Positions 21,316 to 28,573 of a stretch of DNA of 35,391 nucleotides are shown one piece after another. Location: positions 1 to 35,391 of the forward strand of contig CAWHCF010000039.1 of the NCBI GenBank assembly GCA_963827655.1. The letters are read 5' to 3'. Each line of letters begins with the position of its first letter. The first letter of the stretch is position 1. The DNA comes from an uncultured Acidobacteriota bacterium (GTDB lineage Bacteria > Acidobacteriota > UBA6911). Position numbers and translations under genes: made by a program. The notes below the pieces were generated by a model. The model was not told the DNA's origin and made no database searches. It saw only the letters and a list, made by a program, of their open reading frames with translations.

Positions 21316-22908
21316 ATGAGCAGTGTCACGGTCAACAAGGTAGCGATAGCCCCAAATGCCAGGCGCCTGCTCTGGGGGGGATTTCTGGCGATTCTCGCCG
21401 CAGGCGTCGGGTTTGCCATCCGCGGAGGTATTCTCGCCACCTGGGGTGCGCAGTTCGGCTTCACCGGCCAGCAACTGGGCGACATTAACGGCGCCGGGTT
21501 CACCGGATTCTGTTTCGGGATCATAGTCGGCGGCATTATCTGCGACCGGATCGGCTATGGAAAGCTGGTGATCGCGGCCTTCGTATTCCATGTGCTGTCG
21601 GCCGTCGTCACATTTGCGGCAGCGCCGGGGCAGGACCAGATGCTAGCCTATCGCCTTCTCTATTGGGGTACGTTCGTCTTCGCCGTGGCCAACGGCACTC
21701 TGGAGGCGGTGGCCAATCCTCTGGTTGCGACGCTGTTCCCCGACAATCGCACGCACTATCTGAACATCCTGCACGCCAGTTGGCCGGCCGGTCTGGTGCT
21801 TGGTGGATTCGCGGGAGCGTTCCTGGGAGAGACGCTGCAGTGGCACTGGAAGTCCCAGCTCGCCCTGTTCCTGGTCCCCACGGTCGTGTACGGCCTGATT
21901 TTCCTGGGCCAGCATATGCCGAAGTCGGAGGCGTCCCAGAAGGGTCTGACGCTGGGCCAAATGTTCAATGACGTCGGCATGCTGGGCGGCCTGATCGTCT
22001 GTTTCCTGCTGGCGTTGTTCTTCAGTAATGCTCTTGGCCTGTCGAACGCCGTGTCGTACGGCCTGTCGGGCGTGCTGCTCATCTTCATCGGGGTGATCAC
22101 CCGCTTCTCGATCGGATCCTGGCTCTTGTTCGTGCTGTTCGTCGCACACGCGCTGGTCGGCGCCGTCGAGCTCGGCACCGACGGCTGGATTCAGAACATC
22201 ACCGGGAACATTCTGACCCCGACGCAAGGCAAGATCCTGTTTGTGTTCACCTCCGCGATCATGTTCAGCCTTCGTTTTTGCGCAAACTTCATCGAGCGGA
22301 GGCTCGGGCTCTCGCCCGTGGGCATCCTCCTCGTGTGTTCGGTTCTGGCTTGCATCGGCCTCAACCTGACGAGCACGATCACGACGTTTGGGGGCGCGAT
22401 GCTGGTCCTGGCCGTCTATGCAGTGGGCAAGACGTTTTTCTGGCCCACGATGCTGGCAGTGGCCAGCGACCGGTTCCCGCGCACGGGGGCCGTGGCCATC
22501 AGCATCATGGGCGGGATCGGCATGATGTCGGCGGGATTGATCGGATCGCCGGGGCTGGGTTATGCCAAGGACCGTTTCGCCAGCGAAGAGCTCCAGAAGG
22601 CGAATCCTGCGCTTTACGCCGAGTACCAGGCAAGCACCCCGAGCAAGTTTTTATTCTTCGAGCAGGTTTACGGCCTGGATGGGAAAAGACTCGGTGAGGC
22701 GAAACAGCCGGCCCTCGATCAGCGAACGTCGCAGCAGAGGGACGTGGTCCTGGCTGACATGAGGGGCGACCGCAGGACACTGGTGGCCGACTCATTCATA
22801 CCGGCACTCATGGCCCTGATCTACCTCGCTCTCCTCCTGTACTTCAAAGCCATCGGCGGCTACCGGGCGGTCCATATCGTCCCCGTTCCCGAGTCGCAAG
22901 GTTCTTAG
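21316..22908 (+). CDS. MFS transporter (sugar/fucose-permease-like)
   Basis: [11 protein letters not shown] motif [30 protein letters not shown] and [26 protein letters not shown] before ATG 21316. Confidence 0.88.
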
Positions 22909-22986
22909 GCGCTTAGCGAAACGTTCAAACCAACATGTTGTCGTTCAGAAGGGGCCTTCGTTCGGGGCGAAGTCCCCGAACGAACC
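22908..22986. mobile_element. Element B (79 bp double-hairpin insertion), copy 1
   Basis: About 5 differences from the reverse complement of 28484-28561. Flanked by TTA/CTA; 11-bp stem TTCGTTCGGGG/CCCCGAACGAA; palindrome CAACATGTTG. Confidence 0.8.
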
Positions 22987-22991
22987 CTAGA

Positions 22992-23050
22992 GCCTTTGCG
23001 TCTTCATGGTTTGTGCGGGACAACCAACCACCACTAAGACGCAAAGACTC
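22992..23050. repeat. Octamer-periodic repeat, back-to-back pair (left arm interrupted by element B)
   Basis: GCCTTTGCGTCTTCATGGTT, spacer, ACCACTAAG-ACGCAAAG-ACTC. Confidence 0.8.
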
Positions 23051-23070
23051 TGTTCGATGCGGAGGGAATG

Positions 23071-25670: not shown

Positions 25671-26222
25671 ACAGCTCCAAATCGAGCACCGCCAGCGCTT
25701 TCAGTTCCGACGATCACGCGATCGAGAAAAGTCCATTGCCGAGCAGGTTGCGTTTTTCGAACTGAGCAGTCGACGATTTAGCGCCGACGCCCGAGTCAAG
25801 GACACGGGTCCCGGCATCGACTGACTCGCACCTTGCGGCGTTCACGATCGTGCGACCCGATTGCCCGGCCTAACGACCGAAAGCGTCGAGACTCGAAGTC
25901 ACGAGGGCCAAGGCACGGCCTCCGAACACAGGGTTTCGTCGCTGGTCCTTCGACCTCCATGTCATCTGCACCACAATCCACGCCCGCATGCTGCGATCAC
26001 GTCGGGCGCTTGGGTACCTGGCTACGGGCGACTCCACTTCTGTGCCTCGCGAAATGTCCAGACTCCGCGGCCTTACAGGGCGGTTCCGCCCGCTCAAGTC
26101 GATCCCGGCCACAGTACTGCAATCGCAGCATGCTCTCCCGAAGAAATATTTGGAGGCGAGCCGTCTCTCTGCTATACTCTAGCGTTTTAGTTTCAAACTT
26201 TCCCAAACAATCTGGAGGTTCG

Positions 26223-28451
26223 GTGCTGAAGCATCTTCTCTTCGGTGTAATTCTGTGTGCATGGAGGGCCGGCGAGGCGTCTGCCGCCCAGAATACCGGC
26301 AAAATCGATTTCATTCGTGACGTTCAACCGCTGTTGAATCAGCACTGTGTTGGCTGTCACGGGCCGATACAACAAATGAACGGCTTCCGTCTCGACCGCC
26401 GCAGTTCCGCCATGAGAGGGGGCACCTTTCTGATGATCCGGCCGGGGAACAGCGACCTCAGCAGGCTCTATCTCCGGTTGACCGGCAAAGCGCCCGGACC
26501 GCAGATGCCGCCCGCGGGGCCTTTGAGCGCGGAACAAATCGCCACCTTCAAAGCATGGATCGATCAGGGGGCGGAATGGCCGGACGAAGTTTCAGGGGAT
26601 GTCCAGCCGGCTCCCCCCGACCCGAGGGCCGTCCGCCTCGCCGACGCGCTCCACAATGGCGATCTTCAGTCATTCAAAAAGAGACTGAGCGAAGATCCCG
26701 AGGCTGCGAACCTCAGAGCTTTCGGCGGCGCGACGCCGCTCATGTATGCCGCTTTGTACGGAGATTCCGAGTCTGTGAGGTTGCTGCTGGAAAGGGGCGC
26801 CGACCCCAACATCAAGAATGACGCAGGCGCGACGGCTCTCATGTGGGCCGTCGATGACGCCGAAAAGACCCGGCTGCTGCTGGAACGAGGAGCCGACGTA
26901 AATGCCAAGTCAGAGAACGGCCGCACGCCCCTGCTTATCGCGGCGCGCCGGTTCGGTTCGGCAGCGGTTGTGAAGCTTCTGCTTGAACGCGGCGCGGACC
27001 CTTCAGTCAAGTCGGCCGACATTTTCGGCGATATCACTCCGCTGACTGAAGCAGCACGGACGGGGGACGCCCAGGTAATGCGGATGTTGATCGAGCGCGG
27101 CGCGAATCCGAAGTCCGCGGGTTCCCTGGCGCTCTATTACGCCATCCGGGCGGACTGTAGCCAATGCTCCGACATGCTGATCCCGTCTCTGGACAAGAAA
27201 GACCTCAGCATGGCGTCGAATCTTCTCGCTCCGCCCTTTGGAGACGGTCTCGCAACGAAATCGCTGCTCGATCTTGGAGCCGACGTCAATGCCCGGGATC
27301 CCGGAGGCCGCACCACCCTGATGCTCGCCGCAGGTTCCGACGTTCTTCCGGTGGAGACCGTAAAGACCCTGATCAGCAAGGGAGCGGATATCCACGCAAA
27401 GAGCCCCGCCGGTCAAACCGCGCTGGACCTCGCGAAACAAAGAGGCGATACGACCATCGTGGACCTGCTGGTCAAGGCCGGAGCGAAGACCGCAACGACG
27501 CCGAACGAATCCGCGCTGCAGCCGAAGGCAGCCGCCTCCGCCCGGGCCGCGATAGAGAAGATCATTCCACTCCTGCAGAAAAGCGACGCAACTTTTTCCC
27601 GCAAGACGGGCTGTGTTTCCTGTCACAACAACAGCTTGACCGCGATGACGGTCGCGGCCGCGCGCGGGAAAGGTTTGCCGGTCGATAACGAGGTGGCGGG
27701 AAAACAGCTCAAGACGATCGCCTCATTCGTCGCCGATTGGCGCGACCGGCTCCTGCAGGGCATTGGCATTCCCGGTGATTCCGATACCATCAGCTATATT
27801 CTGCTCGGCATGGCCGCCGAGAATTACCAGCCCGACCCGGCCACCGAGGCAATGGCATACTTCCTCAAACACCAGCAAACGCCGGATGGACGATGGCGAA
27901 TCCTCGGGCATCGGCCGCCGATCGAATCGAGCGACATCCAGGTTACTGCGGCCTCGTTGCGGGCGCTTCAAGTCTACGCTCCGAAGACGCATCGCTCGGA
28001 ATACCAGAAGTCCATTCAGCTGGCGGCAGATTGGCTGATGAACTCCCAGCCCAGGACGACCGAGGAACAAGCGTTTCGACTGCTGGGCCTCGGGTGGGCC
28101 GGCGCAAACCGGAAAACTATCCAGAAGGCCGCCCGCCAGCTGGTCGCGGAGCAGCGTTCCGATGGAGGCTGGGCACAGATTCCTTCGCTCGCAAGCGACG
28201 CTTACGGCACAGGACAGGCGCTGGTGGCACTGCAGCAAAGCGGTGCGCTGCAGACGACCGACCCGGTTTACCAGCGCGGAATTCAGTTTCTAATGAACAC
28301 GCAACTCGAGGATGGGTCCTGGCTCGTCAAGTCACGCGCTGTTCCATTCCAGCCCTACTTTGAGAGCGGATTTCCTCACGGTCACGATCAGTGGATCTCC
28401 GCCGCCGCAAGTAACTGGGCCGCGATGGCTCTCGTGCCCGCGGCACGGTGA
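26223..28451 (+). CDS. Secreted fusion: planctomycete-type cytochrome c domain + ankyrin repeats + second CxxCH + prenyltransferase/squalene-cyclase-like alpha/alpha-barrel repeats
   Basis: GGAGG RBS before GTG 26223 and a signal peptide. DFIRDVQPLLNQHCVGCHG...WIDQGA; multiple G.TPL..AA..G...V.LLL..GAD.N repeats; GCVSCHNN; QTPDGRW, QRSDGGW and QLEDGSW motifs. Confidence 0.85.
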   Translation: MLKHLLFGVILCAWRAGEASAAQNTGKIDFIRDVQPLLNQHCVGCHGPIQQMNGFRLDRRSSAMRGGTFLMIRPGNSDLSRLYLRLTGKAPGPQMPPAGPLSAEQIATFKAWIDQGAEWPDEVSGDVQPAPPDPRAVRLADALHNGDLQSFKKRLSEDPEAANLRAFGGATPLMYAALYGDSESVRLLLERGADPNIKNDAGATALMWAVDDAEKTRLLLERGADVNAKSENGRTPLLIAARRFGSAAVVKLLLERGADPSVKSADIFGDITPLTEAARTGDAQVMRMLIERGANPKSAGSLALYYAIRADCSQCSDMLIPSLDKKDLSMASNLLAPPFGDGLATKSLLDLGADVNARDPGGRTTLMLAAGSDVLPVETVKTLISKGADIHAKSPAGQTALDLAKQRGDTTIVDLLVKAGAKTATTPNESALQPKAAASARAAIEKIIPLLQKSDATFSRKTGCVSCHNNSLTAMTVAAARGKGLPVDNEVAGKQLKTIASFVADWRDRLLQGIGIPGDSDTISYILLGMAAENYQPDPATEAMAYFLKHQQTPDGRWRILGHRPPIESSDIQVTAASLRALQVYAPKTHRSEYQKSIQLAADWLMNSQPRTTEEQAFRLLGLGWAGANRKTIQKAARQLVAEQRSDGGWAQIPSLASDAYGTGQALVALQQSGALQTTDPVYQRGIQFLMNTQLEDGSWLVKSRAVPFQPYFESGFPHGHDQWISAAASNWAAMALVPAAR

Positions 28452-28456
28452 TTGTT

Positions 28457-28573
28457 AATACCACTAAGACACGAAGTCGCTAAGGTTCGTTCGGGGACTT
28501 CGCCCCGAACGAAAGGCCCTTGTGAACGACAACATGTTGGTTTGAACGTTCACTAAGCGCCTAAGAAACACAA
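28457..28573 (+). repeat. Octamer-periodic repeat + arm interrupted by element B
   Basis: Removing 28484-28564 gives AATACCACTAAG-ACACGAAG-TCGCTAAG-AAACAC, colinear with AATACCACTAAG-ACTCAAAG-CCACGAAG-AAACAC at 13639-13672. Confidence 0.82.
28484..28561. mobile_element. Element B (78 bp double-hairpin insertion), copy 2, flanked by TAA direct repeats
   Basis: TAA at 28481-28483 and 28562-28564; inverted copy of 22908-22986. Confidence 0.82.

Follow-up and report, generated by a model that had tools for sequence, protein, structure and literature searches.

What kind of DNA segment occurs twice on one contig, at the same point and in the same orientation within a host repeat, and carries neither a gene nor inverted ends? 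The question is raised by a 35,391-nt stretch from an uncultured acidobacterium of the UBA6911 lineage (contig CAWHCF010000039.1 of assembly GCA_963827655.1), referred to here as the window; it is contig C39 of an assembly of 8.18 Mb in 53 contigs, 90% complete and with a G+C content of 59%. Two copies of a small two-hairpin element interrupt arrays of a tandem octamer repeat in this window. The best explanation as a whole, to which we assign a probability of roughly 0.5, is that of an 81-nt element mobilised in trans by recombination of the IS110/IS1111 kind, named after families of insertion sequences (IS). The features on which the argument turns are the following:

28460..28479, plus strand: host octamer arm upstream of copy 2, ACCACTAAG-ACACGAAG-TCG...
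28480..28484, plus strand: left pentamer of copy 2, CTAAG, the last five bases of host unit TCGCTAAG
28485..28560, plus strand: body of copy 2, 76 nt, GTTCG...AAGCGC; with one pentamer, the 81 nt absent from the L042 and run X4 contigs described below
28486..28513, plus strand: hairpin A of copy 2, an 11-bp perfect stem TTCGTTCGGGG/CCCCGAACGAA with the loop ACTTCG, from folding
28515..28562, plus strand: module B of copy 2, an imperfect hairpin whose loop contains the conserved ACAACATGTTGGTTTGAA, from folding and column conservation
28561..28565, plus strand: right pentamer of copy 2, CTAAG, which would be element-borne in our reading
28566..28575, plus strand: host arm resumed after copy 2, AAACACAATC, joined to the left arm in the empty allele
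22904..22908, minus strand: right pentamer of copy 1, CTAAG on the minus strand
22909..22985, minus strand: body of copy 1, 77 nt, belonging to a cluster of 6 near-identical copies
22986..22990, minus strand: left pentamer of copy 1, CTAGG on the minus strand
22991..23051, minus strand: host repeat of copy 1, consisting of an octamer arm, a ~17-nt spacer and an inverted octamer arm

A first-pass annotation of this DNA had reported the two copies as differing at about 5 positions, and both lie where it had placed them: they align end to end with 92.9% identity over 84 nt (~5-6 differences), and the sequence surrounding them does not align between the two. Each copy follows directly after the third unit of its arm, ACCACTAAG-ACACGAAG-TCGCTAAG in the case of copy 2 and ACCATGAAG-ACGCAAAG-GCTCTAGG in the case of copy 1. 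The same annotation had described an 11-bp hairpin and a longer imperfect one, and both fold as claimed: hairpin A is an 11-bp perfect stem, hairpin B has an imperfect stem centred on the CAACATGTTG palindrome with an 18-nt conserved loop, and the two are mutually unrelated. Copy 2 DNA has fold z-scores of -4.9 and -5.9 and none of 200 shuffles is equally stable on either strand, and the base pairs of hairpin A are kept in 51-66 of 67 copies in the genome. A terminal inverted repeat (TIR) was sought by reading both ends, which have only GG..CC in common, again as first described. At copy 1 the TAG stop codon (plus strand) of the open reading frame (ORF) 21274-22908 lies inside the right pentamer, so that the insertion stands immediately past the stop, and several other copies overlap the end of a converging ORF by 3-12 nt.

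That the segment moves is indicated by alleles that lack it. A metagenome contig from the Joint Genome Institute (JGI), L042, aligns on both sides of copy 2, is exactly 81 nt shorter and has one CTAAG left; the protein of the neighbouring gene is 97% identical. In a separately retrieved contig of read-archive run X4, window position 28479 is joined straight to 28561. Orthologous empty sites of the kind that the first-pass annotation had called for therefore exist, and the excision form in them is a normal arm. The segment absent at the empty site amounts to 81 nt, made up of the 76-nt body and one CTAAG; the 78-79 bp given earlier can be kept if TAA is taken as the duplication, but it is 81 nt that the empty sites lack. 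The octamer arrays were also considered as piled-up 8-bp footprints left by successive rounds of insertion and excision, an idea that was dropped, as the alleles differ by 81 nt and only 5 nt are repeated. Contigs of runs X1, X2 and X7 contain no joint across either copy among the joints listed, and of 76 metagenome loci examined at relatives of the neighbouring gene, only one of which is a close relative, none has the element. In four soil or rhizosphere runs the bins that hold the element reach a summed contig depth of 44-1141 versus ~1-30 in most neighbouring bins, which fits a high-copy family, with contigs of other organisms also contributing. These alleles show an 81-nt mobile insertion without coding capacity, which some close relatives have and others lack, the empty target being clean.

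The two window copies belong to a large family. BLAST and nhmmer profile searches of the assembly returned 80 matches to the element core, 67 of them full-length; 69 matches to the hairpin-A half adjoin a match to the B half, and the fragments found at an E-value of 0.01 comprise 5 A-only and 7 B-only matches, several of them weak, so that ~10 partial copies accompany the 67 full ones. The ORFs within 4 kb of 8 partial copies, listed but not compared with protein families, include none that resembles a repeated gene. Column conservation is ~95% from CTAAG-G... through ...GCGCCTAAG. The right boundary is abrupt, directly after GCGCCTAAG, and the left side declines stepwise through units resembling the host repeat. 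Mean pairwise identity is 88% within the element, 41% in the left 24 nt, 29% in the right 24 nt and 26% at positions -40 to -25. Because identity outside the element drops to 26-41%, the copies are dispersed insertions and not duplicated segments; their flanks are unique beyond the arrays, and the case of one composite unit duplicated as a whole, raised in the first-pass annotation, does not apply. The members differ widely in age. Copy 1 falls into a cluster of 6 and copy 2 into a cluster of 5 near-identical copies at unrelated loci (at most 1 difference per 77 columns between linked copies), and other copies carry up to 21 differences from the consensus. Since each window copy has its own cluster of near-identical copies, activity has been recent, and judged from this divergence spectrum the activity of the element is both old and recent, with at least two live subfamilies. 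At C34:51106-51272 two copies stand in direct tandem, the second beginning right after the terminal pentamer of the first, and the element's own end can therefore act as a target.

The target is defined with unusual precision. Strict ACNCNAAG arrays of at least 2 units number 1656 in the genome, compared with ~196 expected from a shuffle, and they often form inverted arms around a conserved spacer of ~17-20 nt. At least 2 octamer units end exactly at the left junction in 47 of 67 copies, and once the AAACACTAAG position is counted ~58 of 67 lie inside arrays, so that the fixed insertion point proposed from two copies extends genome-wide. The proposal that the third unit is interrupted applies to both window copies; across the family the insertion point is a CTAAG-like pentamer at any place in the arm. 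Unit position 5 is a T at 83% of left junctions compared with 12% in arrays generally, and only 203 of the genome's 3153 CTAAG pentamers have an array context, yet ~58 of the 67 copies sit in arrays. The remaining ~9 copies are array-free (for example GTATG...GTATG in unique sequence), and these too follow a CTAAG-like pentamer, oriented as the others are; the random TAA contexts that would have spoken for an undirected insertion are not what is found. Relative to the non-palindromic pentamer all 67 copies have the identical orientation. A census of same-strand array pairs revealed no other recurrent short insert. The host repeat is also present elsewhere in the window, at 5750-5794, 11988-12052, 13607-13671 and 16126-16189. 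All but one of the 67 copies are intergenic, and as all four configurations of neighbouring genes occur (20, 18, 14 and 12) there is no coupling to transcription; by its placement the element shows no apparent sign of a host function.

The genome provides an internal control for orientation in the form of a classical MITE (miniature inverted-repeat transposable element) with TIRs of ~40 nt, which enters the same target. This TIR MITE has 101 copies, of which 64 possess perfect duplications (34 TTA, 30 TAA) inside C|TWA|G, and these duplications split evenly over the internal orientations (19, 15, 15 and 15). Because a DDE-type MITE enters the same target both ways, the 67:0 orientation of the hairpin element is a property of its mechanism and not of the site. 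The TIR MITE itself is found in the window at 12950-13094 and 21046-21284, measures 140-235 nt with TIRs of the form GGG(C/T)TCGCGCAGAAATAA..., and often lies inside octamer arms or directly against the end of the hairpin element; no autonomous partner for it was detected in the assembly.

The junction pentamers record how the copies came to be where they are. Both sides read CTAAG in 35 of 67 copies, 5 have the same odd pentamer on both sides, and in 27 the two pentamers differ. Ten of the differing copies combine a left pentamer of host type (CGAAG, CCAAG, CAAAG and others) with a right CTAAG, and 4 of these 10, at 2-3 differences from the consensus, belong to the youngest copies. Mismatched and matched copies do not differ in age (median 5 versus 5 differences from the consensus, p = 0.45). 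AG or AAG is thus preserved at both junctions, the left pentamer being host-like and the right constant. This pattern tends to speak against staggered-cut duplication, because such duplication would give two identical target-derived pentamers at birth. Recombination by IS621 yields junctions composed of left target, core and right donor (LT-core-RD) and of left donor, core and right target (LD-core-RT), according to the published account (PMC11208158). The junctions of the hairpin element match this outcome, and insertion by an HUH enzyme 3' of the target would give the same pattern. Together with the two-way insertion of the TIR MITE, the junction sequences argue for one-sided site-specific recombination and against cut-and-paste transposition of the DDE type.

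These observations can be assembled into a mechanism. The element encodes nothing and would be moved in trans, most likely by conservative, orientation-specific site-specific recombination of the IS110/IS1111 kind. An excised circle would carry the joined ends, that is the right end, an AG-containing core and the left end, and would recombine with a target bearing the same core; the pentamer would be the target's own at the left junction and the element's at the right, and excision would restore the arm. The two abutting hairpins that span the element would constitute the recognition feature of the machinery or bring the ends together. The first-pass annotation had named an IS110-like, an HUH or a DDE enzyme, and of these the IS110-like enzyme is now the best candidate, the other two having lost ground to the data considered below. 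PF01548 and PF02371, which denote the IS110 family, have 8 matches each in the genome. An IS of 1.72 kb belonging to the IS110/IS1111 family, of which 4 copies are full and 1 is truncated, occupies octamer arrays at CTTAG^TG, with AG at both junctions:

C37:40553-42318, IS110/IS1111-family IS copy
C44:199349-201068, IS110/IS1111-family IS copy
C10:24116-25893, IS110/IS1111-family IS copy
C10:27306-29084, IS110/IS1111-family IS copy
C20:14318-15817, IS110/IS1111-family IS copy

Read from these junctions, the octamer arrays are proven targets of the IS110 family, at the same pentamer. The IS has subterminal inverted repeats and a non-coding right end of ~400 nt, in which a stretch repeats the IS's own junction between right end and target beside a small hairpin and may be a guide RNA; a search of the IS110 loci against Rfam produced only a sub-threshold match to Acido-Lenti-1. 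A second IS110-family type is represented by 2 copies outside arrays, and a third locus is a truncated pseudogene. The genome also contains 20 Phage_integrase and 9 Resolvase matches, none of which, not having been inspected singly, is linked to the element. It is very probable that the element is a mobile, trans-mobilised parasite, and the genome-wide flanks and the empty sites support the earlier description of a non-autonomous, site-specific parasite of the octamer repeat. The attribution of the mobilising enzyme to an IS110/IS1111-like recombinase is more tentative, with the odds somewhat against it, and is the best of several unproven candidates.

Several points weigh against recombination of this kind. 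The ends of the element, compared with both IS110-family types, have best matches of only 7-8-mers at E ~59 and nothing significant. No pair of A and B halves lies 200-20000 nt apart on one strand in the assembly, so that no longer, gene-bearing version is present there and the search for elements with the same ends enclosing a transposase came back empty; as the assembly is 90% complete and in 53 contigs, a missing partner is weak evidence either way. The L042 and X4 contigs possibly derive from related samples and count as at least one, perhaps two, observations. The 5 copies with odd matching pentamers (CTAGG, CTGAG twice, CCAAG and GTATG) and one copy with an 11-nt repeat fit a duplication better, or else local gene conversion; the recombination model would need a further premise for them, such as a preference for matching cores. 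The repeat flanking the element appears to be 5 nt long, which exceeds the 2-nt core of IS621; IS492 is known for a 5-bp target repeat and precise excision. Finally, the element and the TIR MITE have the C|TAA|G target and GG..CC termini in common, and the GGTTCG of the former resembles the GGGTTCG of the latter.

The last of these points keeps a DDE link alive at low odds. In this scenario the element would be an odd DDE-type MITE, moved by the PIF/IS5-like transposase that serves the co-resident TIR MITE and duplicating 3 bp, TAA, inside C|TAA|G, as the brackets in the first-pass annotation imply, and the identity of the pentamer with that used by the 101-copy family, together with the single TAA kept in the empty site, agrees with it. 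However, the terminal inversion is only 2 nt, the orientation is 67:0 versus ~1:1 for the TIR MITE in the same targets, and young copies already have unequal 'duplications', on the left side only. The genome has 0 matches to DDE_Tnp_4, and none of its 6 DDE_Tnp_1 matches is flanked by the ends of the hairpin element or of the TIR MITE. Single-strand mobilisation by an HUH (Y1) enzyme, after the manner of the palindrome-associated transposable elements (PATEs) derived from IS200/IS605 or of the REP/REPIN-RAYT system of repetitive extragenic palindromic sequences (REPs), is compatible with the junctions and is improbable rather than remote. The enzyme would recognise the hairpin and insert the element 3' of CTAAG without duplication, with the right CTAAG as the element's cleavage site, and would account for hairpins in place of a TIR, for the fixed orientation 3' of a fixed pentamer, and for a left pentamer that is host-derived and a right one that is element-borne. 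A CTA(A/G)G-like motif precedes hairpin A in other genera too, a combination comparable to REPs, in which a conserved tetranucleotide accompanies a palindrome. The genome encodes one RAYT-like Y1_Tnp protein of 223 aa (C35:41647-42862, L001), but a perfect 25-nt inverted repeat, present at those two positions and absent from the rest of the genome, encloses its gene, and neither hairpin A nor module B was detected within ~1.5 kb of any of 16 Y1_Tnp loci in 5 genomes; TnpB was absent from the genome. Moreover, a transposase dimer should bind two ends that have similar hairpins, and hairpins A and B are dissimilar. Orientation relative to the sign of the local GC skew is 38:29 (p = 0.33), a comparison of low power given the weak skew (~+/-0.02) and a genome in contigs.

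Spread without any transposase is also conceivable. The element could be a module of a mosaic repeat comparable to BOX or to bacterial interspersed mosaic elements (BIMEs), passed among arrays by ectopic gene conversion or homologous recombination by way of the homology of the flanking arrays, as might be supposed from the ~58 of 67 copies that occupy homologous arrays in the same register, from the existence of A-only and B-only modules, from the joining of hairpin A to other tandem arrays in other genera and from concerted changes in the neighbouring TAAG motifs of some copies. This we consider distinctly unlikely: the ~9 array-free copies have just the pentamer in common with the others, flank identity becomes random within ~25 nt and homology of the right flank extends over ~6-10 nt, and a genome of another genus, G007, has ~100 arrays yet one divergent copy. 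The least probable of the alternatives, to which we give very little credence, is that a structured RNA or protein-binding site (terminator, small RNA or regulatory site) has been selected rather than a selfish element propagated. The stable folding, the persistence of blocks (hairpin A, the ACAACATGTTGG block and AAGCGCCTAA) in single divergent copies of other genera, and the presence of part of a 7.5-kb stretch in soil metatranscriptome runs are compatible with such a role. On the other hand, no relevant Rfam match was obtained for window positions 22000-29500 at E up to 1, orientation is unbiased with respect to neighbouring genes, no T-tract follows the hairpins, and the element is present or absent between relatives that are 97% identical. 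RNAalifold yielded no consensus of use from the 67 copies, which are too alike and show almost no covariation within the genome.

A further reading departs from that of an element borrowing the enzyme of a resident IS. The element may be a minimal 81-nt donor, in effect a free-living attachment site consisting of two abutting hairpins and a five-base core that has escaped its IS, and serve an RNA-guided or hairpin-reading recombinase that is encoded at another place and has no ends in common with it, an orphan guide or enzyme propagating it; or it may owe its movement to a type of enzyme that has so far had no connection with transposition. Under the latter alternative, the whole array and hairpin repeat system, including gene cassettes for four-helix-bundle proteins with inverted short-repeat arrays, would be a single new mobile system. 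Taken jointly, these propositions are unlikely. The cassettes in question are visible in the genome itself, where 12 matches to the 23S_rRNA_IVP (four-helix-bundle) family were recorded (L150-L161; e.g. C51:53465-53773, C46:143507-143737 and C26:290717-291013). On the two sides of most of the 23S_rRNA_IVP genes a 7-8-nt tandem repeat forms inverted arrays, the repeat varying between genes, and this architecture is the same as that of the octamer repeat.

Beyond its genome the family is scarcely represented. None of 50 further genomes of the same family has the full element, nor, in a first search, did any of 40 relatives; one other GTDB species, an acidobacterial metagenome-assembled genome, contains an exact 21-mer of module B, and plasmid and phage collections contain no match to the element. 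The single copy in G007 is longer as well as divergent. Matches to the octamer arm number 314 in the element's own genome and ~100 in G007, and the remaining 49 genomes searched have 7 between them, divided 5, 1 and 1 among three; the host repeat therefore predates the expansion of the element, because G007 holds ~100 arms but one divergent copy. Hairpin A on its own, with a compensatory T-A to C-G change, is present in 4-5 other genomes beside a different tandem array. At loci of other genera of the family (L004, L007, L121 and L123, and L125, L126, L127 and L148 of genome G061) a near-identical hairpin A (CTCGTTCGGGG.CTTCGCCCCGAACGAG) is accompanied by a second small hairpin and a tandem array of the CCATTTT type. 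In G061 hairpin A stands next to a gene of the 23S_rRNA_IVP family and borders a repeated segment, 540 nt or longer, in which a four-helix-bundle gene is located; modules are shuffled among loci. The window also has repeats of another sort at 1710-2970, where direct repeats of 31 and 48 nt, three in number and diverged, are spaced ~380-750 nt apart; they are probably repeated domains within a coding region.

How does the element compare with systems that are already understood? IS1397 is an IS that targets REPs. REPs are well documented as IS targets (PMC1525189), and in IS110-family members such as IS621, ISPpu9/10 and ISPa11 the similarity to our element extends to the choice of one exact position in a dispersed intergenic repeat, the lack of a TIR, a fixed orientation and a short core at both junctions (PMC1525189, PMC11208158). 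The REP-targeting ISs differ in being autonomous, 1.3-1.8 kb long and equipped with a recombinase gene, whereas the element has neither a gene nor an evident guide RNA. A closer precedent is MITEPpu9 (ssr9) of Pseudomonas putida, which PMC12288879 describes as a small gene-less module moved by the IS110-family ISPpu9 into REPs at AG. Like our element it has no gene for transposition, is site-specific within an intergenic palindromic repeat family, has AG at the recombination point and receives its enzyme in trans; unlike it, MITEPpu9 possesses A'/B' end boxes that match its IS, and mostly adjoins that IS, whereas the ends of our element match no resident IS. The element is also smaller (81 nt), reaches ~70 copies compared with 8, and targets a tandem octamer array and not a REP. 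What sets it apart from the MITEPpu9 and REP-IS cases is hence the combination of ends without a resident IS match, 81 nt in ~70 copies, an end-to-end two-hairpin fold and nesting in an octamer array.

Other families of small repeats offer partial parallels. REP/REPIN-RAYT and the IS200/IS605-derived PATEs resemble the element (PMC3116915) in being short intergenic hairpin repeats that lack a TIR, have a fixed motif by the hairpin and are amplified within a genome. The element differs from REP/REPIN-RAYT in that it has no repeat-flanked cognate Y1 gene, its hairpins are unlike each other, no replication-strand bias is detectable (at low power) and it is nested in another repeat family. In its small size, its C|TAA|G target and its GG..CC-type termini it is like the Tourist-like MITEs of the PIF/IS5 superfamily, among them the 101-copy family of its own genome; these have TIRs of ~40 nt, a true TWA duplication and both orientations, none of which applies to the element. 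The small dispersed repeats (SDRs) of Nostoc are said to be shorter than 100 nt, to have no known transposase, to be nested in repeats including tandem heptamer arrays, and to be mobile as judged by comparison of orthologous loci. As tiny mobile repeats nested in tandem arrays they appear to be the closest analogue, and they reportedly differ in length (21-27 nt) and in being cyanobacterial.

Most bacterial miniature elements are recognised by their inverted ends and a matching transposase gene. The element described here has neither inverted ends nor a matching transposase gene, yet it is mobile, strictly oriented and aimed at five bases within another repeat. If an enzyme of the IS110 type moves it, the element demonstrates that very little DNA suffices for a natural donor and that donors can become far more numerous than their IS, at ~70 to 5, which would bear on the natural history of the bridge-RNA recombinases. 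If the enzyme is not of the IS110 type, the element would point to an unrecognised route of mobilisation in the Acidobacteria, a major and poorly studied phylum of soil bacteria. In practical terms the family marks differences in presence and absence at the level of strains, and explains contig breaks at these sites in soil metagenomes.

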